18,011 nucleotides of DNA from a virus (IMGVR_UViG_2630968500_000004:1-18011); one strand, 5' to 3'; positions 636 through 18,011 are shown, numbered from the stretch's first letter. The notes: generated from the letters alone by a model not told the origin. Numbers and translations are program-made.

Positions 636-637
636 TG

Positions 638-1432: not shown

Positions 1433-2119
1433 TCTTGATAATATCGGGCCGCTCAACGCTTGGGTACGGCACGAAATCCAGCTCGACGATGCGCGTCCAC
1501 TGGATGTCGTTATCCTGTCGTTCGTTGGCTTGTGGCTCCTCGTCGAGCAATGTTGGTGCTTCGATGCGGGTGACGACGAAATCCCGAAACTCTCTACTCT
1601 TGCGATCAAAGGGACGTGCCAGCGCATGCCGGTATCAACCAAAGCAAAGGGCACAATTACCCGCTCGGACTCGCCGCTGCTCATCGAGTAGTAGCGGATG
1701 GCGACGGGTCGCTTAGCGTGGATGCCTCGGCAAATCGTGGCTAACACATCCATCTTGGGAATGCTTAGGGCTGCGGGGGATTCGCATGGTAGCAGCGCCT
1801 GCATTGAGCCGTTCACGCCATCGCCAAAACCGAGAGACAGCGCCGACAGAACGCGCAGCGATGCGTGCTCGAACAACGGTGAGAACTCCTGCCCGATGCG
1901 ATAAATCTTGTTGCTACCATCGAAGGTGATGTTATGCGGCGCAATTTCCCGGTACAAAGCCAAATCGCGTGTCGCCCCTGCCGGAGCCACACCGAAGCGC
2001 TCAATCAGATCAGGGCGTCCGATCTCACCGAAGAAATAGAGCCGAAAATCGATGTAGGCCAACCTCTCGCGCTGGACCAAACTCAAGTCCTCAAGCCGCT
2101 TAGAAAGGGAACCAAGCAT
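1433..2119 (-). pseudogene. Disrupted HTH/WYL-like transcriptional regulator gene, frameshifted and fused to the IS5 remnant
   Basis: N-terminal 175 residues of minus ORF 860..2119 look like an HTH followed by a WYL-type motif (RVIVPFALVDTGMRWHV). After about residue 175 the frame becomes S-rich low-complexity, while an alternative frame (minus ORF 1296..1550) carries protein-like sequence, implying a frameshift between about 1550 and 1600. The junction with transposase sequence is near 1432-1440. Confidence 0.4.
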
Positions 2120-2550: not shown

Positions 2551-3414
2551 ATGAACAATTCTGAAGGTTTGAAGTCGTTTCAGCAATCGCTTGCTGGCCT
2601 GCCACAGTGGGTGTCTGAACGTATATTGCAGCAGATAAATCAGTTAACCCATTACGAGCCAGTAATCGGCATTATGGGTAAGAGCGGTGCCGGTAAATCC
2701 TCACTCTGCAATGCCCTGTTTGCCAGTGAGGTATCACCGGTCAGCGATGTGGCGGCCTGTACACGTGAGCCACTGCGCTTTCGCCTGCAGGTTGGCGACC
2801 GCTATATAACGCTGATGGATCTGCCCGGCGTGGGCGAAAGTGGCGCTCGCGATACCGAGTATGCTGCGCTGTACCGCGAACAGCTTCCTCGCCTCGACCT
2901 GGTACTGTGGCTGATTAAGGCCGATGACCGGGCGCTGACGGTGGATGAACATTTTTATCATCAGGTGATTGGAGAGGTATACCGGCATAAGGTGCTGTTT
3001 GTTATCAGCCAGTCGGATAAGGCCGAACCTACCAGCGGTGGGGGACAGTTGTCCACGGCGCAGAAGCAGAATATCAGCCGCAAAATCTGCCTGCTGCATG
3101 AGCTGTTCCAGCCCGTCCATCCGGTGTGTGCTGTGTCGGTCCGTCTACAATGGGGGCTTAAGGTGATGGCCGAGCGGATGATTAAGTGCCTGCCACGTGA
3201 GGCCACCAGCCCGGTGGTGTCGCAACTCCATCCTTCCTTTCGCACGACGGTAGTCCGGGAACAGGCTCGTAGCGATTTTGGTGAAACCGTCGGGGCCGTA
3301 CTCGATAGCATCAGTGCCTTTCCCCTGATACCCGCCCCTGTGCGGGCCGTCATTCAGGCCGTGCGCACCACCGTGGTCTCTGTGGCCCGCGCCGTCTGGG
3401 ATTTCTTCTTCTGA
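2551..3414 (+). CDS. yfjP: P-loop GTPase of the cryptic-prophage YfjP/YeeP/YkfA family
   Basis: 287 aa. Walker A GKSGAGKSS, G3 DLPG, G4 SQSDK. Length and downstream synteny match CP4-57 yfjP; paralog assignment not verified by alignment. Confidence 0.8.
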   Translation: MNNSEGLKSFQQSLAGLPQWVSERILQQINQLTHYEPVIGIMGKSGAGKSSLCNALFASEVSPVSDVAACTREPLRFRLQVGDRYITLMDLPGVGESGARDTEYAALYREQLPRLDLVLWLIKADDRALTVDEHFYHQVIGEVYRHKVLFVISQSDKAEPTSGGGQLSTAQKQNISRKICLLHELFQPVHPVCAVSVRLQWGLKVMAERMIKCLPREATSPVVSQLHPSFRTTVVREQARSDFGETVGAVLDSISAFPLIPAPVRAVIQAVRTTVVSVARAVWDFFF

Positions 3415-3444
3415 GTATTTAATCCATCCCTGTTATTTCCCCGA

Positions 3445-3484
3445 CCCTGTCGCCGATGCGACGGGGATCCCCTTTATTTGTTTT
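3445..3484 (+). terminator. Hairpin plus T-rich tract between the GTPase and DUF932 genes (possible intrinsic terminator or attenuator)
   Basis: 9-bp stem 3445-3453 / 3458-3466 (one G-U wobble), loop CGAT, followed by the T-rich stretch ATCCCCTTTATTTGTTTT. Confidence 0.4.
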
Positions 3485-3505
3485 CCCGTTATGAGGAGTC
3501 TGCTT

Positions 3506-4327
3506 ATGACCCGTCTGGCTTCGCGCTTTGGCGCTGCAAACATTATTCGTCGTGACCGTCCGTTAACCCGCGAGGAGCTGTTTCGCGTGGTGCCCAGTGT
3601 GTTCAGCGAGGATAAACATGAATCCCGTAGTGAACGCTACACCTATATACCCACCATCTCCTTGCTGGACAGCCTGCAGCGAGAAGGCTTCCAGCCATTC
3701 TTTGCCTGTCAGACCCGTGTGCGTGATCCGGAGCGTCGCGAACACACCAAGCATATGCTGCGTCTACGGCGTGAGGGACAGATAACCGGTAAGCAGGTGC
3801 CGGAAATAATCCTGCTCAACTCTCACGATGGCAGCAGTTCGTACCAGATGCTGCCGGGACTATTTCGTGCGGTTTGTCAGAACGGGCTCGTCTGCGGTGA
3901 GTCGTTTGGCGAGGTGCGGGTGCCACACAAGGGGGACGTGGTGAGTCAGGTGATTGAAGGCGCGTATGAGGTGCTGGGGATTTTTGACCGGGTGGAGGAG
4001 AAACGGGATGCCATGCAGTCGTTGCTGTTGCCACCCCCGGCACAGCAGGCACTGGCAAAAGCCGCCCTCACATACCGCTTTGGTGAAGACCACCAGCCGG
4101 TGACTGAATCGCAGATCCTCTCCCCTCGCCGCTGGCAGGATGAGAGCAATGACCTGTGGACCACGTACCAGCGTATTCAGGAGAACCTGATTAAGGGCGG
4201 GCTCAGTGGCCGTAATGCCAAAGGAGGACGGTCACATACCCGTGCCGTTCGCGGTATCGACGGGGACGTGAAACTTAACCGGGCACTGTGGGTGATGGCG
4301 GAAGCCCTGCTCACGCAACTGCAGTGA
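3506..4327 (+). CDS. yfjQ: DUF932-family protein (YfjQ-like)
   Basis: Frame of ORF 3491..4327. Start placed at the internal ATG 3506 because GAGGAG lies 7 nt upstream, giving 273 aa, the length of E. coli YfjQ. Position directly downstream of the GTPase matches CP4-57. Confidence 0.7.
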   Translation: MTRLASRFGAANIIRRDRPLTREELFRVVPSVFSEDKHESRSERYTYIPTISLLDSLQREGFQPFFACQTRVRDPERREHTKHMLRLRREGQITGKQVPEIILLNSHDGSSSYQMLPGLFRAVCQNGLVCGESFGEVRVPHKGDVVSQVIEGAYEVLGIFDRVEEKRDAMQSLLLPPPAQQALAKAALTYRFGEDHQPVTESQILSPRRWQDESNDLWTTYQRIQENLIKGGLSGRNAKGGRSHTRAVRGIDGDVKLNRALWVMAEALLTQLQ

Positions 4328-4356
4328 CCGTTTAATGTTGCTGCTTTGTTAATATC

Positions 4357-4483
4357 GGACACCACCTGTCCGCATCGCACCGTGCTGACGGTCCTCACTC
4401 ACCGAGGGAAGGCCTGTAACCCCCGCTGCCTCTGGCTTTTGCAGAAATGAAAAATAGTTTCTGTGGTGTCCATACCCTGTCCG
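4357..4483 (+). promoter_or_regulatory. Inverted repeat GGACACCAC / GTGGTGTCC, each followed by a CTGTCCG direct repeat, upstream of the WYL regulator gene
   Basis: GGACACCAC 4357-4365 and its exact reverse complement GTGGTGTCC 4463-4471; CTGTCCG at 4366-4372 and 4477-4483. Lies in the 216-bp gap before the regulator ATG at 4544. Confidence 0.35.
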
Positions 4484-4543
4484 ACCCCCTCTTTAAAGTA
4501 ATCACATCATTTTCAGTCAGTTAACTTTCACGGAGAACGTCTC

Positions 4544-5245
4544 ATGACACAGGCAGAACGCCGCCATGACCGGCTGGCTGTCAGGCTGTCACTGATAATC
4601 AGCCGTCTGGTGGCAGGGGAAACGCTGAGTGTGCGTAAGCTTGCCGCTGAGTTTGGTGTGTCGGTGCGCACGCTGCGGCGTGATTTTCGTGAGCGGCTGA
4701 TGTATCTGGACCTGGAGTATCAGTCCGGATATTGCCGCTTACGCACTGCGGGCAGTGAGACGCAGATGGTGCCCGACGTGCTTATCTTTGCCCACCGCAG
4801 CGGGATGGCCGGTCTTTTCCCTGGCTTTGACCGTCGTCTGGTAAACGCACTGCTGATGTGCGATGAGTCTCCCTGCGTAATCGCACCCGCCAGTCCGGTT
4901 CCTTCGCCATCAGGCGCATTGTCTTTCTGGCGACTGATTCAGGCCATTACCGGGCGCAGGCGGGTGACTCTGATTGCCGAGGGGCAGCGCTGTGAGCGGC
5001 TGGCTCCCTGCCGGTTACTTATCCACCAGCAGGCCTGGTATCTGGTGGCAGAGCACGACGGACATATCGCCGTATTCTCCCTGGATGAAATCCATCTGAT
5101 TCAGCCTTTGCAGGAGACTTTTCGCCGCAATGACAGTCTGTGTCGCCTGGTTGAAGACCCGGTCTTCATTCAGGCCTTACCCCATTTTCGCTTTATCCAG
5201 CATTCACTGCTTACGTTTGTTCCGGCTGACAGCCCACCGGAATAG
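4544..5245 (+). CDS. yfjR: HTH/WYL-domain transcriptional regulator (YfjR-like)
   Basis: 233 aa. N-terminal HTH-like region ([20 protein letters not shown]) and a WYL motif ([22 protein letters not shown]). GGAG 8 nt upstream of the ATG. Length equals E. coli YfjR. Confidence 0.8.
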
Positions 5246-5285
5246 CGCAGGCGTTGTTATCAACGCGGCAACAGGGAGGAGCCCA

Positions 5286-5522
5286 GTGCCCGTTATTGCC
5301 ATTATCGCCATTGTTATCATCGTCATCATTCTGAACAAAACCGGAGTGTCCGACAGCCTCACGGCCTTGACACTTGCAACCGTTGCCGCACTACTGACGG
5401 GAGGTGGCGCAGCCGGTGCTGCCAGTGTCGCGCTGACGCCGTTCGTCGGCGTGCCAGTGGGTATTTTTGTGGGAATTTATGTCTTTGCCAAAGTGGTTCG
5501 TCTGATTTCAGGGAAAAAATAA
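5286..5522 (+). CDS. Small hydrophobic inner-membrane protein (78 aa)
   Basis: GTG start 5286 preceded by GGGAGGA with 5-nt spacing, within the frame of ORF 5130..5522. Translation is almost entirely hydrophobic (VPVIAIIAIVIIVIIL ... GIFVGIYVFAKVV). Stop TAA overlaps the next ATG (TAATG). Occupies the ypjK position of CP4-57; symbol not asserted. Confidence 0.5.
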   Translation: MPVIAIIAIVIIVIILNKTGVSDSLTALTLATVAALLTGGGAAGAASVALTPFVGVPVGIFVGIYVFAKVVRLISGKK

Positions 5523-5965
5523 TGAAACGTAAAACACTACCTCTGCTGGCGCTGGTTGCCACCTCTCTGTTTCTGAGCGCCTGCGATGACAGCAGTGATG
5601 ACCTCAAAGCTATCAGTAAATTTAAGGACCTCACGCCTCCGCGCTTCAGCGATGTGGTCAGTCGGCAGGATGATGTCAGCGAAGAATGGTCACAGGTTGG
5701 CTTTTCATCAGGTCTCACCCTGCAGGTCTTACGTACCCGTGAGTCGCCCGATGGCTGCGAGGGCGGTAGTTACTACTACCTCGTGGATATGCAGGAAAAA
5801 ACCATCCAGCCGCTGATGAATGCGCTGTGTATTGCCGATAACATCAAACTGGAATACCAGGAGGTGACGGACCCGTATACCAAAGAAAAATACTTTGAGT
5901 ACGCCCATGACGGCAAACTGATGGGGCAGCTACTGATACCCTCGAACCCTGACAATCAGGAATAA
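5522..5965 (+). CDS. yfjS: Lipoprotein (YfjS-like)
   Basis: 147 aa. Signal peptide with lipobox LSAC (MKRKTLPLLALVATSLFLSAC). Length and position match E. coli YfjS. Confidence 0.7.
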   Translation: MKRKTLPLLALVATSLFLSACDDSSDDLKAISKFKDLTPPRFSDVVSRQDDVSEEWSQVGFSSGLTLQVLRTRESPDGCEGGSYYYLVDMQEKTIQPLMNALCIADNIKLEYQEVTDPYTKEKYFEYAHDGKLMGQLLIPSNPDNQE

Positions 5966-5987
5966 AACAACGACAAAGGAGACAAGA

Positions 5988-6455
5988 ATGACAATACTTT
6001 CACTAAGTCGGTTTATGCTGGCGGGTGTACTGCTCGCGAGCTTTAATGCCTCTGCTATCCCGGGGTTCTGGCAGCAGGGTTACGGTCAGGGCAATACGGA
6101 ATACAGCGTGACCGAAGCCAGCGGAAAGACGTTTACCATCAACTGCACAGGGAACCCGGACCAGAATGGTTTCTATCAGCATTCAGTCTTTCTTACCCTT
6201 GCCGATGACAAGATGGTCAGTTCGCACGATGACGACACTACTATCACCGTAGTGATGGATCACCAGCAGTACATTATTCCGTCCAGCCTGGGCTGGCGTA
6301 ACGGCGATAACGCCTGGTTTGACTTCATCAGCAATATCTCTGAGGCCGGGCAGTTCGACGTCTACGTCAATGACCACAAAGCAGGGACCTTCACTGCGGA
6401 CCGGAAGAACACTGAGAAAGTTCTGTCCACTCTCGGAGACTGCAGCAACGACTGA
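5988..6455 (+). CDS. yfjT: Secreted/periplasmic protein (YfjT-like)
   Basis: 155 aa. N-terminal signal peptide ([23 protein letters not shown]). AGGAG upstream. Length and position match E. coli YfjT. Confidence 0.7.
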
Positions 6456-6481
6456 TAGTAGTATCTTCCCCAGCAAATCCA

Positions 6482-6516
6482 CCCCGACAGCTAGCAGGCT
6501 GCCGGGGTTTTCTTTT
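6482..6516 (+). terminator. Rho-independent terminator after the yfjT-like gene
   Basis: 10-bp stem CCCCGACAGC 6482-6491 / GCTGCCGGGG 6498-6507 with one A-C mismatch, followed by TTTTCTTTT. Confidence 0.55.
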
Positions 6517-6531
6517 ATCAGGAGCCCGAAA

Positions 6532-6681
6532 ATGACCCAATCCGTGTTGCTGCCACCGGGGCCTTTCACCCGGAGACAAGCGCAAGCGGTCACTACCACG
6601 TACAGCAATATCACACTCGAAGACGACCAGGGCAGTCACTTCCGTCTGGTGGTTCGTGATACTGAAGGCCGGATGGTCTGA
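6532..6681 (+). CDS. Small hypothetical protein (49 aa)
   Basis: ATG 6532 with GGAG 8 nt upstream, directly after the terminator; in frame with listed ORF 6319..6681. No recognisable family. Confidence 0.3.
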
Positions 6682-6868
6682 CGGGCATGGAACTTTGAGC
6701 CGGATGCCGGTGAAGGTCTTAACCGCTATATCCGCACCTCAGGCATCCGTACAGACACGGCCACCCGCTGATCGCGAAGCATTTACCCGCATTCACCTCC
6801 CCGAACACACTTTATATCCCCATACGCCAGCCATCGCCGCTGGCGTTTTTATTGACGGAGACATACCC

Positions 6869-7327
6869 ATGACAACACAGACGCAGCACGACCTCGCACC
6901 CGCTAACCAACCCGAATTTGAACTGACCGTCACGCCGGTCCCCGATGAACAGCGTATCGATTTCTGGCCACAGTACTTTGGCGCTATCCCGCAGTGGCTA
7001 CTCCTGGAGCCGCATATCTTCGCCTGGATGGACCGCTTCTGTGAGGGCTACAGCGGTGGTATCTGGTCGTTCTACACCCTCAGCAATGGCGGCGCATTTA
7101 TGTCCCCCGAGCCTGACAACGATGAGACATGGCGTCTGTTTAACTGCCTGAACGGTAACGATGCCCAAATGAGTGCAGAAGCAGCAGGTATTGCTGTCTG
7201 CCTGATTGCGTATAGCCACCATGCCTGCCGTACAGAATGTGACGCGATGACCGCACACTATTACCGCCTGCGGGAGTATGCCATGCAACATCCAGAGGCT
7301 CACGCCATTCTGCGTATTATCGACTGA
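6869..7327 (+). CDS. yfjX: Antirestriction-family protein (YfjX-like)
   Basis: Frame of ORF 6656..7327. Start set to the internal ATG 6869 (GGAG 9 nt upstream), giving 152 aa, the length of E. coli YfjX; the upstream extension looks non-coding. Family call is by resemblance, not alignment. Confidence 0.7.
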   Translation: MTTQTQHDLAPANQPEFELTVTPVPDEQRIDFWPQYFGAIPQWLLLEPHIFAWMDRFCEGYSGGIWSFYTLSNGGAFMSPEPDNDETWRLFNCLNGNDAQMSAEAAGIAVCLIAYSHHACRTECDAMTAHYYRLREYAMQHPEAHAILRIID

Positions 7328-7342
7328 CCGAAGGAGCAACAG

Positions 7343-7819
7343 ATGAAACAGCTTTCCTTTTTACCCGGCGAGATGACGCCACAGGACCGGCGTCTCATTC
7401 AGCGGGCGCTCAGGGCTCTGGACCGCCACCTGCATGAGCCCGGCGTAGCCTTCACCTCTACCCACGCCGTACGTGAATGGCTGCGACTGCATATGGCCGC
7501 GCTTGAGCGGGAAGAGTTCCGGGTGTTGTATCTGGACAACCAGAATCAGTTGATTGCCCATGAAACGCTCTTCACCGGCACGATTAACCGCACCGAGGTG
7601 CATCCCCGGGAGGTGGTCAAACGTGCTCTGCACTTCAACGCGGCGGCGGTGATACTCGCGCATAACCATCCTTCCGGCGAGACGACACCTAGCCAGGCCG
7701 ACAAAACCCTCACGCAGCGACTGGTTCAGGTGCTTCAGCTGGTGGATATCCGTGTCCCTGACCATCTGATTGTCGGTGGCAGGCAAATCTATTCGTTCGC
7801 AGAACACGGTCTGCTTTGA
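7343..7819 (+). CDS. yfjY: RadC-like JAB-domain protein (YfjY/YeeS/YkfG family)
   Basis: 158 aa with the JAMM-type motif HNHPSG and the conserved PSQAD segment. AGGAG upstream. Confidence 0.85.
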   Translation: MKQLSFLPGEMTPQDRRLIQRALRALDRHLHEPGVAFTSTHAVREWLRLHMAALEREEFRVLYLDNQNQLIAHETLFTGTINRTEVHPREVVKRALHFNAAAVILAHNHPSGETTPSQADKTLTQRLVQVLQLVDIRVPDHLIVGGRQIYSFAEHGLL

Positions 7820-7827
7820 GGTATTAC

Positions 7828-8049
7828 ATGAAAATTATCAGTAAACGCAGGGCAATGACGATATACCGCCAGCATCCTGAGTCCCGAATCTTTCGCTACT
7901 GCACCGGCAAATACCAGTGGCACGGTAGCGTCTGTCATTACACCGGCAGGGACGTTCCGGATATCGCCGGAGTCCTCGCGGTATACGCCGAACGCCGCCA
8001 GGACCGCAATGGGCCCTATACCTGCCTGATGAGCATCACCCTGAACTGA
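7828..8049 (+). CDS. ypjJ: DUF987-family small protein (YpjJ/YeeT-like)
   Basis: Frame of ORF 7816..8049. ATG 7828 preferred (GAGG upstream; 7816 is a TTG inside the RadC stop region). Sequence pattern RIFRYCTGKYQWHGS ... GPYTCLMSITLN is typical of YeeT/YpjJ proteins. Confidence 0.7.
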   Translation: MKIISKRRAMTIYRQHPESRIFRYCTGKYQWHGSVCHYTGRDVPDIAGVLAVYAERRQDRNGPYTCLMSITLN

Positions 8050-8067
8050 CAATAGTGGAGAACTGTA

Positions 8068-8747
<680 letters not shown>

Positions 8748-8811
8748 ACATTGCGTACAACCTTCCCGATTTACATTTCTGAACTTCCTCCCTTGTTTAC
8801 CTATTGCGTAA

Positions 8812-8847: not shown

Positions 8848-9275
8848 TACGGACAAACAATCATGCAACCAGAAGTTGAAGTATTAACCGATCATAATGA
8901 GCTAATTTGTTCGAGCTTTATTGAACACATTGCCAACACATTAAATTTAGGAGTGGTGTACAACTAAACCTGCAGCCAAGGATGTATAGTGAGCGAAGCC
9001 CTATCAGGCCTTTTTGGTCAGTAGATAAGATTGATCTTCGTTGATAGAATTTACTTACACCAGCTGTTACATTAAGATAATTTTTTGGTGGGAGAATGAT
9101 AAGATCTTACGTAACAATTTGATTTTAATGGTGCGATAATAGGAACAATACCTAACGATCAATCACCATGATTTAAATGAATTTTTATGCTTTCGATTTT
9201 CTCACATACCCCCAAAAGTACCCCCACATTGTTTTTCGTCTCAATTTTGGGGTATGCGCTTACCAAGAAACACAG

Positions 9276-9464
9276 CTAACGCCGTGGTGATGGTTTGCGC
9301 CAGTGGTACTCTTGCGCGGTCATGCGTTGACGATGGCGCTCTTTTGCTGCGAGTGTACCGGCGACTCTACACCGCAATTCAAGCTTGTCAGCAGCATTTA
9401 GCGTAACCCCCTGCTGAGTTGCCATCTCGACTATAGCAGACTCGATCACTTCTGATTTCAGCAT
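9276..9464 (-). CDS. Small hypothetical protein (62 aa)
   Basis: Frame of minus ORF 9276..9473. ATG 9464 preferred because GAGGTGG lies 8 nt upstream. Last gene of the minus-strand operon. No family recognised. Confidence 0.4.
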   Translation of the reverse strand: MLKSEVIESAIVEMATQQGVTLNAADKLELRCRVAGTLAAKERHRQRMTAQEYHWRKPSPRR

Positions 9465-9515
9465 GAAAACCACCTCGCAAATATTGTTATATGTGACATG
9501 TCACCGAGCACACTA

Positions 9516-9989
9516 TTAGCCCATAAACCGACGATAAGCCTCTCCGGCTTCTTCTGCGGTAAGGCTTGTGGTCTCCGCCCTGATCGGCCCGCCGTCCTTA
9601 CCTGTAGTCTCGACTTTCAGCTTATTGGTGTAAGCATCTCCGCACTCTTTTGCGGCCTGTTCGATCAGCTGCGCCGTCAATGCGTAGTTTTTTATCGCCT
9701 CGGCTCGGTTTGCCATACGATCCAGCATTCGCAACCGGTACGCTTTGTTAGCGATCGGGATATCGGATATTTCACTCTGGAACCGGGCGCGAGTGTGGTT
9801 AAAGAGCTCGACCCACTTTTTGCTAAGATTTTTAGCCATCGAATTTTCAGGGTTGTAGGCCGATATCTGCTGCCGGGTAACAACGATACCAAAATCTTGT
9901 TTTACAAGTTCGACAATTCTTGATGGAGGTTCATAGCAGGCTAAAGATTGAATAATCATCACCTTAGCCATAGTTGGTAATGCTGCCAT
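9516..9989 (-). CDS. Phage small-terminase-like / DUF2280-like protein (tentative)
   Basis: 157 aa. N-terminal segment (IIQSLACYEPPSRIVELVKQDFGIVVTRQQISAY) resembles the HTH-type N-terminus of DUF2280 / small-terminase-like phage proteins as I remember them. Recognition is from memory and unverified. Confidence 0.45.
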   Translation of the reverse strand: MAALPTMAKVMIIQSLACYEPPSRIVELVKQDFGIVVTRQQISAYNPENSMAKNLSKKWVELFNHTRARFQSEISDIPIANKAYRLRMLDRMANRAEAIKNYALTAQLIEQAAKECGDAYTNKLKVETTGKDGGPIRAETTSLTAEEAGEAYRRFMG

Positions 9990-10081
9990 CGCTCACCTTT
10001 TGACAAAGGAAATCAAAGTAGCGCACTGAGTTCTGACCTCCCGCGCCGCTACTTAAAGTTACATATCACGCCATCTGACCG

Positions 10082-10261
10082 TCACCCTACGTTATTTCGC
10101 ATGGTTTCCGCTGTGCGAGATTCTTCGCTGATCGCACTCTCACCGAAGCTGCCAATACCATCTGGTTCCGGCTGCCCGTTGATATCATCCAGCCAGGTAC
10201 GAACCTTACCATTCTGGCTGGCTCCGCTTTCTTCTGGTTTCAGTTTTTCAATATTGCTCAT
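10082..10261 (-). CDS. Small acidic hypothetical protein (59 aa), absent from the ORF track
   Basis: Hand translation of the minus strand: MSNIEKLKPEESGASQNGKVRTWLDDINGQPEPDGIGSFGESAISEESRTAETMRNNVG. Its ATG (10261-10259) overlaps the spike-gene stop TGA (10260-10258) as ATGA, suggesting translational coupling. Confidence 0.3.
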   Translation of the reverse strand: MSNIEKLKPEESGASQNGKVRTWLDDINGQPEPDGIGSFGESAISEESRTAETMRNNVG

Positions 10262-10920
10262 TGTGGTTTTCCTGTGTTGCTGCCGCCTGATTGTACACCG
10301 CCGTGGGTATGGTTAATCTGGCTGATACCGTTGGCCGTTTGGTCGCCAGTGGAAGTGATCGTTCCGTTTACCTGCACGGGCCCGTTAAGGGTGATTTGAG
10401 AGCTGGTAATCGTAATGGCTCCACCAGCGGCCACTTCTACAAATGCCGCGCCATCATCGGTTCGCAGCTGCGCGGCGCTGGTACTGATACCGCTGATTTT
10501 CTTCACCTGCGACTGCGGGCCAGGAATCACGAACGCATCCGACAGATCTAAAACACGCCCGTCAGCTCGCTCCTGCACACCGCCGTTTTGCCACCAGAAA
10601 TCAATCGAACGCGAAGAGAATACGATAAGGCACTCATCACCTTCTTTGATAGGGAAGGTCAGGGTCACGCCACCGCCACGAGGGAACACAACTGGCAAAT
10701 CAACCAGAATAGGATACCTAACTGATTCATACTGATAGTCTTCCTCGACGGTGCCGGGTTTCGTCATTCTGGCAATTATTGCTACGTCGACGTCACAGGT
10801 CACTGTTTCCGGGTCAAATGAACGGATAATGCCTGGTAAGGCATTCTTTACCGCAGCATTGCTATTGCTCTGTATTTGGTTAACCGTATCTTGCTCATTG
10901 GCAGGTCGAATAAATGGCAT
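10258..10920 (-). CDS. Phage baseplate central spike protein, gpV / Gp138-type
   Basis: Frame of minus ORF 10258..10965. N-terminal LPGIIRSFDPETVTCDVDVAI is an OB-fold-like spike signature; C-terminus INHTHGGVQSGGSNTGKP carries the HxH apex motif typical of P2 gpV-type spikes. Start chosen at ATG 10920 (GGGG 5 nt upstream); the alternative TTG at 10965 would overlap the preceding gene. Confidence 0.6.
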   Translation of the reverse strand: MPFIRPANEQDTVNQIQSNSNAAVKNALPGIIRSFDPETVTCDVDVAIIARMTKPGTVEEDYQYESVRYPILVDLPVVFPRGGGVTLTFPIKEGDECLIVFSSRSIDFWWQNGGVQERADGRVLDLSDAFVIPGPQSQVKKISGISTSAAQLRTDDGAAFVEVAAGGAITITSSQITLNGPVQVNGTITSTGDQTANGISQINHTHGGVQSGGSNTGKPQ

Positions 10921-10930
10921 AGCTACCCCA

Positions 10931-11278
10931 TCAACCTGATATACGTTTACAGTCAAACGAGCCAATAATGCGAGGCTCGTCCATATTGCCGCGAATCAAC
11001 TCAACATTAAGCCAGCGTTTATTGCTTCCGTTCGGGTGAATGTATTCAAAGCCGTACATATTCCCATCACGCGCAGGCATCAATGTCATCTCAACTTTGA
11101 GTCCATCATCACCGAGTTCAGTAATTTTTTGAGATGTAACCATTTCCCCGTTAACTCTTGTCATTTCGCCGACTTTGGCAACAAGATTGAAGTTTCCACA
11201 TTGTGAAATTACTGTTCCAGTATTTGCTAAAGCATTAGTGGAAAGTATCACGGATAAGAAAATGAATGTTTTTTTCAT
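10931..11278 (-). CDS. Secreted protein with a cleavable signal peptide (115 aa), low-GC insert
   Basis: N-terminus MKKTFIFLSVILSTNALA followed by NTG: a classic Sec signal with an AxA site and no lipobox cysteine. Codon usage is visibly AT-richer than both flanking genes. Two cysteines in the mature part. Confidence 0.6.
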   Translation of the reverse strand: MKKTFIFLSVILSTNALANTGTVISQCGNFNLVAKVGEMTRVNGEMVTSQKITELGDDGLKVEMTLMPARDGNMYGFEYIHPNGSNKRWLNVELIRGNMDEPRIIGSFDCKRISG

Positions 11279-11282
11279 GCAG

Positions 11283-12374
11283 TTACCACTTATTTAGTGT
11301 TTCGCCAGAATAAATATCAGTAGCGCCCCGAGCTTCACAAGCCAGATCCATATACCATGCCTGCCCTCTGGTATCGCCGGTATAATTTATATACCGAACC
11401 TTATAAACACCGTCAGTTGCAATGCTGGCAGGTTGAGAGGTTGGTGGCGCATCAATCAGGTTTCCATTGGCATCCTTGATCTTCGTTATTGGTACAAGGT
11501 TTCCATCAATATCTTTTTCGACAAATCGCCCACTAAATATATCCTGATTCGACAATGGATTGCGGTACACCGACGCCTGATCCAACTGAATAAGCCCATT
11601 CAGTTGAATACTTGAATTGATTAAACAGCGTACATTAACCCCAGCTCCGATAGTTTGCTGAGGCATGCCCACCAGCCCAGTATTTGAGTTTAATACTACG
11701 GCCTGATGTGCCGCTGTATCTCTGGCAATCATGTCGACCTTGCCGTAACTAAACTGCCAGGTAGCCTTACACTGCGCAGCTACCTCATCAAGATAGTTAT
11801 GCACGTAACCAAAGAAAGCTCGCCCGCGAGGAAATACCGTTGATGGAAAAACCGGAGTGATACCGCGCCCGATACCATAGGGTTCCAAGCTCGTCATGAG
11901 AAGGTTATAGACGTCTTCAGTGGTGTAGCCTTTCTGAATGGTCGTACTGACGAACGCGCTGACAAACGCTTCTTCTGAATCACAGGCCTGCACGAGAATC
12001 CAGGAATCGACGAGATTATCCTTACCGGTCACTGTAAAACGGATATCACCGCTAAAGATCATCCCATAGTTTTGCCCATTGGTTTGACCTACCTGGTCAG
12101 GTGAAATCTCCCGGACGACACCAACTTCACTCTCCTGAACATCCTTAGCCAGGCCATCATATCCCGCTATCAGAACAATCTTGGCAAACTCACGCTGCAT
12201 AATACGGTTCTGAGTGGTCGGTGAAAGGTTGTAGATCTTGACCGTCGCGACAGCTGGCCATTTGTTATCGTTACGCTCTATATCAAAGGTAACTTTGAAA
12301 TCACTAAGGCTAATTCCTTTGCCATTCTCATCGATGAGCTGTAGCTCGAAATGGCGCATCCAGTTATATGACAT
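11283..12374 (-). CDS. Phage tail/baseplate protein, possibly a gpD-like hub (tentative)
   Basis: 363 aa, with an AGGAA ribosome-binding site. N-terminal beta-rich pattern (HFELQLIDENGKGISLSDFKVTFDIERNDNKWPAVATVKIYNLSP) resembles the N-terminal domain of P2 gpD / Mu gp44 hub proteins, and it sits upstream of the spike gene as in Mu-like tail modules. The coding call is solid; the hub assignment is weak. Confidence 0.5.
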   Translation of the reverse strand: MSYNWMRHFELQLIDENGKGISLSDFKVTFDIERNDNKWPAVATVKIYNLSPTTQNRIMQREFAKIVLIAGYDGLAKDVQESEVGVVREISPDQVGQTNGQNYGMIFSGDIRFTVTGKDNLVDSWILVQACDSEEAFVSAFVSTTIQKGYTTEDVYNLLMTSLEPYGIGRGITPVFPSTVFPRGRAFFGYVHNYLDEVAAQCKATWQFSYGKVDMIARDTAAHQAVVLNSNTGLVGMPQQTIGAGVNVRCLINSSIQLNGLIQLDQASVYRNPLSNQDIFSGRFVEKDIDGNLVPITKIKDANGNLIDAPPTSQPASIATDGVYKVRYINYTGDTRGQAWYMDLACEARGATDIYSGETLNKW

Positions 12375-12379
12375 AGTCG

Positions 12380-12547
12380 TTATTCCTGAATTGATGCCAG
12401 CGCTTTCGCCACCAGCCCACGGGCAATTTGATGGACAGACGGCGCTACGCCAATATCGGAGCGCTGACGTTCGCGCTCCTGGATCTTGCAGATTGCGGCG
12501 AACTGGTCGCCAGAGAGTAATACCGGCTTAACGTTTGGCTTTTTCAT
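12380..12547 (-). CDS. Small basic hypothetical protein (55 aa)
   Basis: Frame of minus ORF 12380..12640. ATG 12547 preferred (GGAGTG 6 nt upstream). Overlaps the 3' end of the upstream gene by about 20 nt. Confidence 0.4.
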   Translation of the reverse strand: MKKPNVKPVLLSGDQFAAICKIQERERQRSDIGVAPSVHQIARGLVAKALASIQE

Positions 12548-12716
12548 CCTGTTCACTCCAGAACCGTGCGTTTGCTTCGTTGAGGTTTGCATTGTTGCGA
12601 CACTCGCGATCGAAGTTATTGCGAGCCTTTGCCGCCTCAAGGTCTTGCCGGGTCAGCATCGGACGGCGTGTACTCTGTGGGTTGCCTGCTGCTAATTTTG
12701 GGTTGTATGTAGCCAT
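12528..12716 (-). CDS. Small hypothetical protein (62 aa)
   Basis: Frame of minus ORF 12528..12725. ATG 12716 preferred: strong TAAGGAGTG ribosome-binding site 8 nt upstream. Confidence 0.45.
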   Translation of the reverse strand: MATYNPKLAAGNPQSTRRPMLTRQDLEAAKARNNFDRECRNNANLNEANARFWSEQDEKAKR

Positions 12717-12728
12717 GCTGATCACTCC

Positions 12729-13280
12729 TTACCTTGTGCGGTGCCAGAAGCTGGCATTATCGGTGTTGATCTGGCGGAGAGAGTCGCCAGTGGTGAGAGT
12801 CTTCGGCGTTACGTTATTGGCCTTCATGTAGTCGCCCACCTGCTCCAGCACGTCGATAGCCTGATCCAGCGGGATTTCTGACAGCGGGGTCGGGTGTACG
12901 GCGCTGAACGCCTCAACAGGGGCATAGCGCAGCACATCGAGCGCGACAATGCGCGGGTCGGCGTCGGGCAGCGCTGAATCGTACTTTGGCGCTACGGCGC
13001 GTACCAGCCGCATGAACTCGGCATTCATGGCCGTTGGTGCTGTAGACGTTGGAGAAGCGCCGCTACCACTTCGGGTAATCATGTCACTATCGCGGGTGTA
13101 CATACGACGCAAACGGTCGCCGGTTGCAATGCGTGTAGCGCGTTCCTGTTTAAGCGTTGTTGCAAGATTTGCAATGATAGCCGCTACCTGTGCGTTACAG
13201 GCAAATACGGCTTCGCTTCCATCCGCGAACGTGACCACCCCGCTTTCACCAGATATAGAGATGTTTGAGATTTCTTGCAT
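12729..13280 (-). CDS. Hypothetical protein (183 aa), first gene of the minus-strand operon
   Basis: ATG at 13280-13278; long ORF with no recognisable family by eye. Followed by tightly spaced or overlapping downstream genes. Confidence 0.55.
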   Translation of the reverse strand: MQEISNISISGESGVVTFADGSEAVFACNAQVAAIIANLATTLKQERATRIATGDRLRRMYTRDSDMITRSGSGASPTSTAPTAMNAEFMRLVRAVAPKYDSALPDADPRIVALDVLRYAPVEAFSAVHPTPLSEIPLDQAIDVLEQVGDYMKANNVTPKTLTTGDSLRQINTDNASFWHRTR

Positions 13281-13314
13281 GGTTCAGAACCTTAGTAATT
13301 GCTCGAATTCTGAT

Positions 13315-13333
13315 CATTGCACAAATTGCAATG
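13315..13333. promoter_or_regulatory. Operator-like palindrome CATTGCA-n5-TGCAATG upstream of the minus-strand operon
   Basis: 7-bp arms at 13315-13321 and 13327-13333. ATTGCACA recurs at 13406-13413. Located 35-55 bp upstream of the 183-aa gene start. Confidence 0.3.
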
Positions 13334-13428
13334 TTAGTAAATATCGTTGCGAATATTGAAATAATAAATCAACCTGTTACTATGGATATGAGTCACTATT
13401 GTGTGATTGCACAGCATGGTTAACAAAA

Positions 13429-13462
13429 GCCCGCGCCTCTCCAAGCGTGGGCTTTTTCTTTT
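13429..13462. terminator. Rho-independent terminator, potentially bidirectional
   Basis: 8-bp stem GCCCGCGC 13429-13436 / GCGTGGGC 13445-13452 (one G-U wobble), loop CTCTCCAA, TTTTTCTTTTC downstream and ACAAAA upstream. Confidence 0.5.
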
Positions 13463-13842
13463 CTGGTCAGCAACGTGTCTCTTTCCCTCATCGGTTACTT
13501 AAAAAATCGATTCCACGCCCGGTATACCCTTCAATCCCTCAAGCCATGCGCTTGCCAAGCCCATCATGTATACAAAACCGGGCAAAAATACATTGAGGGG
13601 TATACAGCCATACCCCAGCAGTGGCAGGGGTTAGGAGGCATTGATTATCAATGCGTGGGGTGTGATAACTTTTTGTGGATTTATTCAGCAAAAACACATC
13701 GGTGTATCCGGTGATGCGGTCAGAGATCTGACACGTTCCCCCCCCTGGTGATCGGCGGAAAAGTCCGCCGATGCTGATGCTGGCCTAACCTGCTTTCGAT
13801 GTTTTCGTTTTAGAGAAAACGCTATAGATAAACAAAAACATG

Positions 13843-14133
13843 TTGGTTCAGTCGGTTCAGTTGGTTCAATTTGTAAAGATTGTTGTTTTATAAGGTTTAT
13901 TTATTGATGAGTGAACCAACAAAGCCATGTTTTGAACCAACAATCGCTATTTTCGTGTTGGTTCAGTGGGAAAGATTTACAGGCCAGCCAGAAAAGGGTG
14001 TTGGTTCAATAGCGGTATTTGTTGGTTCAAAATGGGCGTTTGTTGGTTCAGTGTTGGTTCACTTATGAACATATAAGTATATTAAATACATACAGTTATC
14101 TTAATTATGTAGTTACTGAACCAACTGAACCAA
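13843..14133. repeat. Iteron array: 12 copies of the octamer TTGGTTCA / TGAACCAA (one degenerate); candidate origin of replication
   Basis: Forward copies at 13843, 13853 (cGGTTCA, degenerate), 13861, 13958, 14001, 14022, 14043, 14054. Reverse copies at 13912, 13933, 14117, 14126. Irregular spacing, AT-rich context, immediately 3' of the primase-helicase gene. Confidence 0.7.
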
Positions 14134-14158
14134 CAAAAAACAATCTCGTGTGTGTGCT

Positions 14159-16840
14159 TTATTCTTCGCCCTCTATCTCGTCGGGTCGTAGCTGGAGCAC
14201 ATAAACGTTTATCTGGCGTCCATCAATTCGTGGGGATTTACGCTGATACCCCCTTCCGCTGGCTGGCGGTTTCAGCACCCCAGCTCCGGCAAGCACACGG
14301 GCAAACTGTTTAGCATTAAAGCCCTGCGCTATCTCCTTTTCGAACGCAGCCGGAAAGGTGTAGAACACTACGGGGCTTTCGTCATGCTCGCCTTTCTGAC
14401 GGTATCCGGCTAAATCCCGGATAGGCATGTCAGCCGGGCTATACGGGAATGGCGCGAAACGGCTCAGGCCGTAGGCATTAAGAAACGCCTCCGCCTGCTC
14501 AATGATCTGCTTATGCTCACGGTTCCCCGTGCCGAACTCTTTTACCCAGGCGTTAAAGCCATGCTGGATGGCGTCCCGGCTTTCCTGCTCCCCCCAGCCA
14601 GTGACAGGCATCCCGAGCACCAACGCCGCCTCCAGAATAGCGAACCGCTCGCCTACACGATGAACCTGTTCGCCATAATCAGCAGGGATAAGACTACGCC
14701 AGCGCTCCTGCGCCGCTTTGACAGCTTGTTTCGCCTCCTGCTGGTGGCCTGCAAGCCATTTAATCCATTCACGGCCTGCGGCTCCGTGGTTCGTCTGGTA
14801 TGCCTCTTTGAGTGCGTCAGCGTGCTGCTTGCCGTTCTGGTACTCATGGTGCGATACGGATTTCTCCATCGGTAAATTAAGCAGTCGCACCAGTTGCCCG
14901 GCCTTAACTTTCAGCCCACCAGCAGAAAGAAACGTCTCAATGTCCATTTCCCCGGTACTGATCGCCACGGTACGCCAGCGCTTTAACTCGCGGTTGCCTC
15001 CCTCCTTCGCCCCCTGTAGCTTTCCGGCACCGTTAAACAGCGTGTAAGCAGACGTAGCAACGTCTTTCGCGCTGCTACCCTGCCCCACTTCGTCCAGGGG
15101 TAACAGGCTATCGTTATGCGCTTCCGCTTCGTTGGCGATACCCAAAGCAGTACCGTACCAGGTGAGGCGCAGGGCATCAGGTTCACCGTAAAGGCTGCTG
15201 GCTATATTGGCGGTCGTCGTCTTACCAGCACTGGACTGTTCGAAAAGGTGAACGCCGAAACCGTCAGCACCAACAAGCCCGATCAGCGGCGCAGACAGCG
15301 CAGCAGCAACGCCCAGCATCATTGACGGGTTGCCCAGCGCAAGGCGCGCCACCGAATCACGCCAGCTTTCCGGCGTTCCACTGACGGTATAGCCACCAGC
15401 CGCAGCACTCCGACCACTGAATAACAGCGGTATCTCTGGCTCACCAATAACATCACCATCCGGCATGATGTACGCCCCGCTGTGCCAGCCTGTGGTGTGG
15501 CTGATCTGCCATTCCTTGCCGCTACCGGTTCGCTGTAGCCAGTCGGCCAGAATCGCCCGCAACGATGGTTTGGTCGTTACACTGACACCGCCGTTTTTCA
15601 GCGTGCGCCATCCCTCACGGTCGCCAATGTCCTCCCATGGAAGCGCCCGGGTAACTTGCCCCCGGTTGCCGGGGACGTCCCAACGCAGGATCAGAAAGCG
15701 CTGTCTGGCGTTATCACTCCCCGCACCAGCAATCTCCAGCGGAGAGCATAGCCACGCCTCGGTATTGATAATTTCCCCTGTGTCTTTATCCACTTTCGGG
15801 GTGATCCAGTGAATGCCATCCGCACGGCTCTCTACTCGCGGTTTCAGATCGTCGTCGATACCGGGTTTTTTCTTGCCGCCGTCGATAGCTGTCAGTGTCG
15901 CGCCCACTTTCTTACCCTCCGGTTGGTACATTGAGTCGTTAAATGCTGCTGTGGCCGCTTCGAGGCCGTATTGCTGGTGGTAGTCGTTCCAGTCCGCTTT
16001 ATAGTCCACTGGTGGCATGGAAACCCAGCCAGAAACGGCTTTCGCTGCTTTCTCTGCGGCCTCCTTGCCAGTGTTAACTTTCACTCCTCCAATTCCGTCA
16101 CTTTCGCCGCTCTGATCGTTATCTGCGGCAATGATGATCTGCGCGTTCGGGTAGCGCTGACGCATCGCCATAGCAACAGCGGGGAGGTTCCCGGCGTCAA
16201 TTGCGGCCACCGCCAGCGCATCAGGTCGCATATGCTGACCGGATATGACTGTCGCCAGCCCTTCCCCGATCAGCACTACATTCGGCGTATCAACGTTACC
16301 CAGGGCAAAGAAAGATCCTTTTTTTACCGTGCCAGCCACCAGCCGCTTACTACCATCAGGTTTAATGACCTGCGCCCCGGTAATCGCCCCGGCTACGTTC
16401 GTCAATGTGATCAACATCGAGCCATCAGACAGCAGCGGGAAGGGGCGCTGTAGCCCCTTTGATGTGAGGTATTCCGATTGACCTGATACAGCCTTGGCAG
16501 CCAGCGCAGCAACCTTAGCCACGATATCGGTTTGAGGCTTCTCTCTGGCTGGCTGCTGTTCCGGCAGCGGCAGCGCCATCACTTCCGCCACCATCACAGC
16601 TGCCTCACGCGCACCGCACTGCCTGACCTTCATCACCAGATCCAGCCCCGTACCTGCGCCACAATGTGAGCAAAAGTAAGTACCTCGCCCGTCCTTGTCG
16701 TCAAAGCGGTAACGGGTATTGCCACCGCAAGCCGGGCATGGTCCCTCGCTGCGATTGGTTGGAATACCGAGCCGTTCAAAAATTGGCTGCCAGTGGCCGG
16801 TCGCCTTGATGCGCACATCGTTTATAAAATTATCTTTCAC
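14159..16840 (-). CDS. P4-alpha-like DNA primase-helicase (zinc-binding primase domain, Toprim, C-terminal ATPase)
   Basis: 893 aa. N-terminal zinc ribbon CPACGG ... CSHCG, Toprim-like acidic motif IIIAADNDQSGESDG, P-loop-like SSAGKTT in the C-terminal half. Architecture typical of satellite/island primase-helicases. Confidence 0.85.
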   Translation of the reverse strand: MKDNFINDVRIKATGHWQPIFERLGIPTNRSEGPCPACGGNTRYRFDDKDGRGTYFCSHCGAGTGLDLVMKVRQCGAREAAVMVAEVMALPLPEQQPAREKPQTDIVAKVAALAAKAVSGQSEYLTSKGLQRPFPLLSDGSMLITLTNVAGAITGAQVIKPDGSKRLVAGTVKKGSFFALGNVDTPNVVLIGEGLATVISGQHMRPDALAVAAIDAGNLPAVAMAMRQRYPNAQIIIAADNDQSGESDGIGGVKVNTGKEAAEKAAKAVSGWVSMPPVDYKADWNDYHQQYGLEAATAAFNDSMYQPEGKKVGATLTAIDGGKKKPGIDDDLKPRVESRADGIHWITPKVDKDTGEIINTEAWLCSPLEIAGAGSDNARQRFLILRWDVPGNRGQVTRALPWEDIGDREGWRTLKNGGVSVTTKPSLRAILADWLQRTGSGKEWQISHTTGWHSGAYIMPDGDVIGEPEIPLLFSGRSAAAGGYTVSGTPESWRDSVARLALGNPSMMLGVAAALSAPLIGLVGADGFGVHLFEQSSAGKTTTANIASSLYGEPDALRLTWYGTALGIANEAEAHNDSLLPLDEVGQGSSAKDVATSAYTLFNGAGKLQGAKEGGNRELKRWRTVAISTGEMDIETFLSAGGLKVKAGQLVRLLNLPMEKSVSHHEYQNGKQHADALKEAYQTNHGAAGREWIKWLAGHQQEAKQAVKAAQERWRSLIPADYGEQVHRVGERFAILEAALVLGMPVTGWGEQESRDAIQHGFNAWVKEFGTGNREHKQIIEQAEAFLNAYGLSRFAPFPYSPADMPIRDLAGYRQKGEHDESPVVFYTFPAAFEKEIAQGFNAKQFARVLAGAGVLKPPASGRGYQRKSPRIDGRQINVYVLQLRPDEIEGEE

Positions 16841-17057: not shown

Positions 17058-17354
17058 TTATTTACCTTTCGTCATCTGACGACACTGATATTCCGCATTG
17101 GCTGCGGTATCAGATAACGCTCGCGCCAGCGGCATTAATTCCATCAGCATCCCACCAATATCTCGGAAATCTGTTGCTGACGGCTCATATTCACCGTTCT
17201 CAGCACCACCAGCGTAGAACATCATCTTACCTACAGCGGCGATCCCATTCAGGATGCTATCGGCGGCGCACTCAGCACGGGAAGACAGCATCTGGAGATC
17301 AGATTTATCGGTATCAGGGAAATCGGTGCGCACAAAATCGTTGTAAAGGTTCAT
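17058..17354 (-). CDS. Hypothetical protein (98 aa) coupled to the recombinase gene
   Basis: ATG overlaps the recombinase stop (ATGA); GGAGGT 5 nt upstream. No family recognised. Confidence 0.45.
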   Translation of the reverse strand: MNLYNDFVRTDFPDTDKSDLQMLSSRAECAADSILNGIAAVGKMMFYAGGAENGEYEPSATDFRDIGGMLMELMPLARALSDTAANAEYQCRQMTKGK

Positions 17355-18011
17355 GCTGTGACCTCCATAGCCAGACGTGACTGGATCGCGGATGCTTTAC
17401 TACCGAGCTGTAAATAGGTGCGGGTAATAGCCGGGTTGCTATGCCCCAGCATTTCAGAAGCCACCAGCAAGCCTTGCTCACCGCCTGCTGACATGAGGTT
17501 AAACGCGGCTATTTTGCGACTGGAGTATGCGCTAAGGCGCAGCTTGGCGTTAATGAAACGGGTGAACCACTGCATAACATCATGCAGCTTGCGCCAGATA
17601 GTCTGGCGAGTAACGCTACCTTCCAGACATTGGCAACGGTTACTTTCGATTTGAGAGCGGGAAAATACCAGGTCGTCCTCTACCAGATTCCGATCCTGAC
17701 GGTCACGCAGCCGCTTGATGATGCCTGGCGGTAACTGCTTGGTGTCGTGTTTGACGTCAGCCTTTGCCACCAGCTCGAATACTATGGCCTGTTCTTCGCC
17801 GTTCATGTCGGCGGCCAGTTCGTCACAACCGATGCTATCCCACTTCATGTAGGCGATATGATCAGCGGCCATCCGGGCGGCATCCTTACGTTGCTGGCGC
17901 ACAATCTCGATACCTTTGCGGGTTGCCCGCGCTTCGGCGGCTTTGGTTTGCTTGGCAACGATAATTGTCGCCTGCCCCGTTTCCCAATTGACGCAGGAAT
18001 AGCGGAGGGTG
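17351..18011 (-). CDS. Tyrosine-type site-specific recombinase/integrase, C-terminal catalytic part (5' end lies outside the window)
   Basis: Reading frame stays open to the window edge; the listed start at 17902 is an internal GTG. C-terminus has a tyrosine-recombinase-like pattern (LGHSNPAITRTYLQ, with an upstream conserved-arginine region). Family call by eye. Confidence 0.55.
   Translation of the reverse strand, partial: TLRYSCVNWETGQATIIVAKQTKAAEARATRKGIEIVRQQRKDAARMAADHIAYMKWDSIGCDELAADMNGEEQAIVFELVAKADVKHDTKQLPPGIIKRLRDRQDRNLVEDDLVFSRSQIESNRCQCLEGSVTRQTIWRKLHDVMQWFTRFINAKLRLSAYSSRKIAAFNLMSAGGEQGLLVASEMLGHSNPAITRTYLQLGSKASAIQSRLAMEVTA

Follow-up and report, generated by a model that had tools for sequence, protein, structure and literature searches.

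The stretch of DNA examined here, 18,011 nt from a virus (IMGVR_UViG_2630968500_000004:1-18011; the whole stretch is referred to as the window), has an identical counterpart in the chromosome of Escherichia coli strain G5 (NZ_CP060065.1), and our subject is an operon at window positions 9276-13280 which forms the far end of a bounded and intact 12.9-kb integrative element inserted in the tRNA gene thrW of that strain. A reading of the sequence alone (the original prediction) had described nine co-directional, tightly packed genes there, and nine minus-strand open reading frames (ORFs) were confirmed, seven of the junctions between them having a gap or overlap of -20 to +12 nt. RefSeq annotates eight of the nine in G5, the ninth (9276-9473) being unannotated, and gives shorter starts for three, those of the spike and of the 55-aa and 62-aa proteins, which are followed in the coordinates below. 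As the original prediction had also stated, no tape measure, sheath, tube, wedge, fibre or large terminase (TerL) gene is annotated by RefSeq in the island.

The 363-aa protein encoded at 11283-12374 (minus strand, like the rest of the operon) is a baseplate hub of the E217 gp41 / Pam3 gp19 type. It matched phrog_196 'baseplate hub' (E 1.9e-77) and NCBIfam NF047561 (171.3 bits, cut-off 170) and, amongst solved hubs, Pam3 gp19 (E 2.8e-7) and phi92 gp137, whilst its only Pfam match, PF22759 'E217 gp41', was at 26.3 bits just below the cut-off of 27; the predicted role as a hub therefore stands, but membership of the P2 gpD family does not. The central spike is encoded at 10258-10920 (220 aa from the ATG, 235 aa in the first ORF call) and comprises a gp138-type OB-fold N-terminal domain (E 1.8e-37), a short beta-helix, which scored below its cut-off (21.5 versus 27), and an HxH apex (Apex motif E 3.4e-8, sequence ...NHTHGG). 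Together with matches to the solved spikes E217 gp43, phi92 gp138, Pam3 gp20 and others, this bears out the gpV-type spike that had been proposed, and the paired proteins E217 gp41/gp43, Pam3 gp19/gp20 and phi92 gp137/gp138 are thus direct sequence matches to the 363-aa and 220-aa proteins. Between the two genes, at 10931-11278, lies that of a secreted 115-aa protein (sp115; phrog_3443) with a Sec signal peptide, an eight-stranded beta-barrel and invariant Cys27 and Cys110, the barrel having the same general architecture as periplasmic lysozyme inhibitors (PliC/MliC considered) and a type VI secretion system (T6SS) immunity protein. Further downstream, at 9516-9989, is a 157-aa small terminase of the DUF2280 type (E 2.9e-39).

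The remaining genes of the operon encode small proteins. The first, at 12729-13280, specifies a 183-aa protein (p183) with which the late zone of this satellite lineage begins, even where hub and spike are missing; NCBI gives many of its homologues the name 'XRE family transcriptional regulator', the AlphaFold model was poor (pLDDT 64), and Foldseek and PDB profile searches gave no fold or PDB match. A relationship of p183 to the Dit-like protein of the helper phages was considered and rejected, there being no similarity. The 62-aa protein (p62; 12528-12716) is conserved together with p183 and with the 55-aa protein (p55; 12380-12547), which in most related satellites directly precedes the tail block and is 61-100% identical in loci L003, L016-L020 and L022-L024; a reading of its sequence suggests that p55 may be a ribbon-helix-helix-like regulator. 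Downstream of the spike, a 59-aa acidic protein (10082-10261, with a 4-nt overlap with the spike stop codon) is kept in the same place in related satellites (43-98% identity; L009-L013, L016-L018, L020 and L025). Profile searches gave no family assignment for the 183-, 62-, 55- and 59-aa proteins. The last gene, at 9276-9473, encodes a 65-aa protein (phrog_7271, E 1.6e-19) found at the same island end in more than 15 related islands, including L003, L009-L013, L017-L021 and L023-L025, and a terminator scan placed a terminator-like hairpin at its end (9286-9271).

The island boundary was located by comparison with K-12. Homology to K-12 extends from a CP4-6-type block beyond the operon up to window position 9144, where it stops inside thrW, and at 9127-9146 is a displaced copy of the 3' end of tRNA-Thr (thrW) with a 1-nt deletion (AATGGTGC-GATAATAGGA, as against AATGGTGCCGATAATAGGA at the intact tRNA), which is the distal copy of the attachment (att) site; the operon is therefore the end of a 12.9-kb element and the CP4-type block is its neighbour. 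A search for att sites by long direct repeats recovered no boundary. The other end of the island, intact thrW adjoining the integrase, falls outside the window at about window coordinate 22051. Thus the placing of the operon inside a P4/CP4-57-like island was right in so far as this is a satellite of the phage-inducible chromosomal island (PICI)/P4 superfamily with its own att sites at thrW, but the CP4-57/CP4-6-type block is no part of it, and the operon is not an orphan as had been thought, being the satellite's standard late zone.

In the RefSeq annotation the order from proA-thrW is a tyrosine integrase, a 294-aa protein, an AlpA-type regulator, a 144-aa protein, an Ash/Icd-like protein, a second tyrosine recombinase, a 98-aa protein, DUF4222, an 893-aa TOPRIM/DUF927 primase and then the nine-gene operon, with the CP4-6-type block (ykfI-yafW and others) beyond it. 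The integrase (domains Arm-DNA-bind_3, Phage_int_M and Phage_integrase) faces inwards, with the AlpA gene (PF05930, E 1.4e-17) at the same end, and the Phage_ASH domain protein (E 6e-21) lies between the integration and replication genes; Bro-N was found, amongst the islands compared, only in a Pectobacterium relative. This is the layout shared by Gram-negative PICIs and helper-embedded PICIs (HE-PICIs), namely an inward integrase with AlpA, an Ash/Bro zone, a primase with an origin, and a co-oriented late zone of helper-captured genes. Other genomic features of PICIs are likewise found in G5: the 12.9 kb that separate the thrW fragment from the intact gene carry no lysis genes and few virion genes, and the hub, sp115, spike and small terminase (TerS) genes of the co-oriented late zone are homologous to genes of SEN34/Omnitron-type phages.

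A marker-protein scan covered 49 loci (labels L0xx), and the block proved to be conserved as a unit. The entire 9000-14000 stretch was present in only one of 5426 complete E. coli genomes, that of strain G5 itself. The block of hub, 115-aa protein, spike and small protein, followed by a terminase-like gene, occurs in related islands of at least eight enterobacterial genera. In a Rahnella island the hub is 81%, sp115 62%, the spike 67% and the primase 58% identical to those of G5, and a Pfam Terminase_2 small terminase follows. Hub homologues of at least 65% identity were found in Klebsiella, Enterobacter, Raoultella, Pectobacterium, E. coli and metagenomes, all of them in islands with integrase, recombinase, DUF4222 and primase, and in these islands the series hub, ~114 aa, spike and ~55 aa precedes a terminase-like gene of the DUF2280, DUF5681 or phrog_57-like helix-turn-helix (HTH) kind. 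The block is kept across satellites with different integrases and replicases, and a series of reduction can be seen amongst them: a long form with the tape measure as well (L022-L025), a mid form in which Dit-like and plug genes are also present (E. coli EC2001, K. pneumoniae), the short form, and none. No terminal repeats marking circular or virion-derived contigs were found in L016, L017, L019 and L022, which gave no metagenomic sign of encapsidation.

The satellite genes are distinct from those of phages. The G5 hub is 65-99% identical to satellite hubs and about 54-60% to phage hubs, and the corresponding values for the spike are 66-98% against other satellites and 48-53% against phages or resident helpers. 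Satellite hubs and satellite spikes each formed one clade in neighbour-joining trees, apart from all phage copies sampled, and the 115-aa proteins nearly formed a satellite clade of their own. Values of dN/dS were 0.05-0.17 for hub, spike, 115-aa protein and p183 where synonymous change was unsaturated (0.07-0.17 for the hub, 0.05-0.12 for the spike), and every examined copy was intact; random decay is therefore ruled out, and substitution patterns of this kind indicate that the hub-spike block is under purifying selection. The hub also retains most positions conserved in phage hubs.

Hubs 54-59% identical to that of G5 belong to temperate myoviruses of about 40 kb, namely Citrobacter Omnitron, Yersinia YP3, Salmonella SEN34 (Brunovirus), Klebsiella Mulock and E. 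coli vB_EcoM-689R2, and in Omnitron the 115-aa protein, the spike and the DUF2280 protein have homologues as well. The SEN34 genes run tape measure, Dit-like protein, plug, hub, small genes, spike, W, J and wedge; the order tape measure, gp17, gp18, hub was seen in every phage locus of the scan covering the region, and nearly all such loci have one to four copies of the 115-aa gene, whose position in helper phages is always between hub and spike. SEN34-type phages thus have the same order of hub, small gene(s) and spike as the satellite. Compared with the complex of simple myoviruses, the hub and spike studied here differ in being satellite-encoded, in being without tape measure, plug, Dit-like, wedge and sheath genes, and in forming their clade apart from the phage copies sampled.

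In several genomes the island lies within a SEN34-type prophage, co-oriented with the prophage late genes. Three embedding sites were found: in baseplate J near codon 19, where att repeats of 17 bp are separated by 12.3-12.9 kb (12,901 bp in one case); in a DUF2184-type major capsid gene at about codon 134; and at the junction of scaffold and cement genes. The virion genes are of SEN34 type in all three helper contexts, and in one embedded composite the resident and island spikes are only 48% identical. The embedding of many related islands in structural genes of SEN34/Omnitron-type prophages identifies the type of helper, which on this genomic evidence is a SEN34/Omnitron-like temperate myovirus of Enterobacterales with lambdoid early genes and E217/Pam3-type virion genes. 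Two observations on such prophages may be added. An abundant SEN34-type prophage of E. coli (L014 9143-9693; hub cluster of 1840 member sequences) appears to be without sheath, tube and tape measure genes between tail terminator and plug and may be a common deleted derivative, and a helper-type prophage of Serratia (L005 11092-15950) has four sp115 paralogues between hub and spike, which suggests a diversifying use of this protein by phages.

The DUF2280 protein supplies a second connection with these helpers. It is 64% identical to the Omnitron gene directly upstream of TerL (19831-20301, with TerL starting at 20307), and the suggestion of a small-terminase-like protein is upheld by this position, by the DUF2280 match and by its C-terminal tail. 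The TerL of Omnitron is 95% identical to that of SEN34, and the SEN34 small terminase belongs to a different family. The C-terminal tail of the G5 protein (...TTSLTAEEAGEAYRRFMG) is common to SEN34 TerS, the TerS of phage L045 and the Rahnella satellite Terminase_2, the last of which shares only its final 33 residues with the G5 DUF2280 protein. In the form T(T/N)LTxxxAxExYxxxMG this tail ends the G5 and Omnitron DUF2280 proteins, SEN34 TerS, the phage Terminase_2 TerS and the Rahnella satellite Terminase_2, so that one C-terminal tail is found across three unrelated N-terminal TerS families. We infer that it is a TerL-docking peptide, and its sharing favours a satellite TerS able to engage the packaging motor of the helper. 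A pac site was not identified, and genes for capsid-size redirection were not found in the G5 island.

Taken together, we consider the nine-gene block to be, on its conservation, a real, functional module, the late operon of which is best read in three parts: putative regulators, a puncturing device specific to the satellite lineage, and TerS. The reading that we favour, and hold to be probable, is that the nine genes form the late zone of a PICI-type satellite, 12.9 kb long, by which the packaging of the helper is redirected and its tails are given a new tip. During lytic growth of the helper the satellite would excise and replicate from its own origin, its TerS would recruit the helper TerL to satellite DNA, and about three 12.9-kb copies would fill one head of ~41 kb, the islands (12.3-12.9 kb) being roughly a third the size of the helper genomes (40.7-41.9 kb). 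The satellite hub and spike would be built into the centre of the helper baseplate, giving transducing particles with a satellite-specified puncturing tip; such incorporation is suggested because neither hub nor spike is truncated, the residues that phage hubs conserve are retained, and selection has been long-term. A benefit of the satellite's own tip would most likely be felt at cell entry and, more speculatively, the tip might bypass entry blocks in cells already carrying the helper. Entry into helper lysogens would be attractive for the embedded relatives, because helper prophages hold their only normal integration target. As to origin, genes just upstream of the baseplate-J insertion site, from tape measure to spike, would have been captured and then lost stepwise down to hub-spike; the position of the captured set just upstream of that site suggests aberrant excision there, and the block probably arose in this way followed by reduction.

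Several observations weigh against this interpretation. Strain G5 has no SEN34-type TerL or portal at megablast sensitivity (chimeric query) and no resident helper is evident, although the same search found them in another 397 genomes of the species; it would seem, therefore, that the thrW copy awaits an incoming helper. The tail tip would be common to helper and satellite particles, with no obvious private advantage for the satellite. In the p183-led late zones of some close relatives a 222-aa HExxH protein replaces hub-spike, so that the lineage can do without the tip genes. The hub has few satellite-specific residues, apart from a variable insertion near residues 281-300, with no altered function visible in the sequence, and the fold matches of sp115 are generic. 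A broader scheme, which we put forward only tentatively and regard as doubtful, is that of 'tail-tip-forming' satellites, in which the puncturing centre of the helper is replaced by a lineage-specific version that confers a distinct entry phenotype on the particles, with sp115 as the matching periplasmic exclusion factor. Some relatives would in that scheme also replace the tape measure, Dit-like ring and plug, and the satellites might, for example, enter helper lysogens despite helper-encoded exclusion.

Amongst the alternatives, the one that fares best, although we think it rather unlikely, is that hub, spike and/or the secreted protein act against phages and not as parts of satellite particles, either through a dominant-negative hub or spike poisoning the baseplates of the helper or of related myoviruses, or through periplasmic sp115 excluding superinfection in the manner of T4 Spackle. 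Known satellites typically reduce helper yield. A prophage protein that prevents invading phages from assembling their tails is documented (PMC10884400). The slot is dynamic, the non-structural HExxH gene standing in it in some relatives as in cargo slots, and sp115 is exported and shares its general barrel architecture with the periplasmic lysozyme inhibitors and T6SS immunity protein. Nevertheless, identity with a defence system was rejected, since the PADLOC scan gave nothing above noise for any of the nine proteins or for the other island proteins; poison subunits would be expected to show targeted changes, whereas hub and spike are full length with functional-hub residues and the apex motif kept; the satellite itself depends on working tails; and the block has been inherited as a unit over long periods, whereas defence cargo is usually swapped.

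Passive capture, in which the genes were taken by aberrant excision at the baseplate-J site and are en route to loss with no adaptive role, seems to us very unlikely. It would account for a tape measure-to-spike set immediately upstream of the J insertion site and for the existence of a long-to-mid-to-short-to-none series, and cycles of large capture and then loss have been proposed (PMC10111431). However, protein divergence amongst short-form hubs and spikes reaches 35-43% and synonymous sites are saturated, yet all examined copies are intact with dN/dS of 0.05-0.17, and they fall in one clade over at least eight genera and several backbones; intact divergent copies in one clade indicate long-term selection and not transit. 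Of the three readings offered by the original prediction, satellite modification of a helper's tail tip with redirected packaging is the best fit, and a decayed myovirus prophage remnant, suggested by the presence of few tail genes only beside a cryptic-prophage-like block, is scarcely credible given that the operon belongs to a bounded element of 12.9 kb that has its own integrase, AlpA, primase, origin and att repeats, that the adjacent CP4-6-type block is outside it, and that the same compact arrangement recurs in many genomes as a unit with a clade of its own and under purifying selection.

The re-tipping satellite that we favour can be set beside several known systems. Tommasini, Mageeney and Williams (2023; PMC10111431) described helper-embedded PICIs with a four-zone layout and a dynamic late zone that captures helper late-gene clusters and then loses most of them. 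The G5 island resembles HE-PICIs in its size of ~12-13 kb, and its relatives resemble them in being embedded in helper late genes without replacement sequence and co-oriented with late transcription. The published HE-PICI sites, however, are cognates of lambda late genes in siphovirus-type helpers (PMC10111431), whereas those of the G5 relatives are in contractile-tailed helpers at baseplate J, the DUF2184-type capsid gene and the scaffold/cement junction. Neither the text of that paper (PMC10111431) nor those of its supplements that were searched mention hub, spike, baseplate, DUF2280 or DUF2184. Further differences are that the G5-type tip block is a long-lived, monophyletic satellite module and that the G5 copy lies in thrW and not in a prophage.

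Genes of the kind found in capsid-forming PICIs (cf-PICIs) were neither annotated nor detected in the G5 island. cf-PICIs make capsid, portal, connectors and TerL, and only tails come from the helper; the likeness is that part of the virion is self-encoded and the remainder comes from the helper. The G5 element is their converse, encoding the central tail tip and TerS only, and heads, sheath, tube, wedges and fibres would come from the helper. In Staphylococcus aureus pathogenicity islands (SaPIs) a satellite-encoded small terminase pairs with the helper large terminase to package satellite DNA. A satellite-encoded TerS is common to SaPIs and the G5 island, for which a redirection of packaging is supported by the shared putative TerL-docking tail; the G5 TerS is of another family (DUF2280). 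With P4 the island has in common the integrase, AlpA, an Ash/Icd-type protein, a large primase, tRNA-adjacent integration and a contractile-tailed helper. It differs in that its helper is not P2-like and in carrying tail-tip genes and TerS, both of which P4 is without. Membership of P4 was rejected, as no island protein had a sid, delta or psu Pfam/PHROG match. Neither the C4/IsrK immunity RNA nor any other Rfam family was found in the 18-kb window, a scan that excluded the integrase-proximal ~4 kb outside it.

To our knowledge, satellites almost never carry hub/spike-type genes, and none encoding hub, spike or DUF2280 was found in the literature searched. The general phenomenon of late-gene capture by PICIs is known, and 'undescribed system' was too strong a description since both this capture and helper embedding by PICIs have been published (PMC10111431); a conserved satellite tail-tip module is not described in the literature searched.

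Several other features of the island lie upstream of the operon. The control region (13281-13456, minus strand) comprises a strong bidirectional hairpin terminator (13425-13456) and then, before the p183 start codon, ~145 nt with repeated TGTGCAAT(C/G)A motifs; conservation of the last 196 nt is 82% in L049, L020 and L016, and the region presumably acts as the operon promoter. The primase gene (14159-16840, minus strand; 893 aa with zinc ribbon, TOPRIM and DUF927) forms the replication zone of the same island, and downstream of it an iteron array (13845-14140) has more than 10 copies of TGAACCAAC / GTTGGTTCA in both orientations. This array, 92% conserved in L049 and L020, is the presumed replication origin. 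Between origin and operon terminator are ~335 nt of non-coding DNA (13477-13812) shared only with the closest relatives, L017 and L018, with no Rfam match and no annotated ORF. Near the distal att copy a doubled motif, TACCCCC-N5-TACCCCCA (9207-9226), is repeated in the same orientation near the integrase end (L001 27918-27937) and is probably an arm-type site of the integrase; a different doubled motif occurs around attP in HE-PICIs (PMC10111431).

The second, short tyrosine recombinase (291 aa; window 17351-18011, L001 23352-24227) is 96-98% conserved across islands and is amongst the most conserved backbone proteins compared, though main integrases and primases differ widely. Some embedded islands have an extra 341-aa integrase inside the late zone (L010/L011 13156-14181), and PICI late zones likewise sometimes carry one (PMC10111431). 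The HExxH protein of other late zones (222-223 aa with a HEAGHAV motif; L051 8788-9456 and L053 8910-9581) had no Pfam-precomputed, PHROG or PADLOC family and may be cargo of another kind, for helper interaction or for defence. Outside the island, the CP4-6-type block (2551-8750) holds a GTPase, DUF932, yfjR, ypjK, yfjS, ykfB, a ykfF pseudogene, an antirestriction protein, JAB/RadC, DUF987 and the yafW-ykfI toxin-antitoxin pair, and is a separate element already adjoining thrW, as in K-12, the satellite having inserted between block and tRNA. Window positions 1-2100 (L001 38-7436) hold the end of a locus of heat resistance (S1C protease) and then a truncated IS5 transposase, with HdeD-GI, Trx-GI, KefB-GI and PsiE-GI upstream of the protease.

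The lineage to which the G5 island belongs is one of satellites that retain a tail-tip module long-term across many enterobacterial genera, and it extends the helper-embedded lifestyle to contractile-tailed helpers. SatelliteFinder treats tail profiles as forbidden components (PMC10085698), and elements like the G5 island would be expected to be rejected or mis-called as prophage fragments; the shared TerS tail offers a simple sequence marker for pairing satellites with helpers. If the tip is indeed built into particles, these satellites would alter how a helper's tail enters cells, which matters for the range of hosts reached by transduction and for designing phage-based delivery vehicles.

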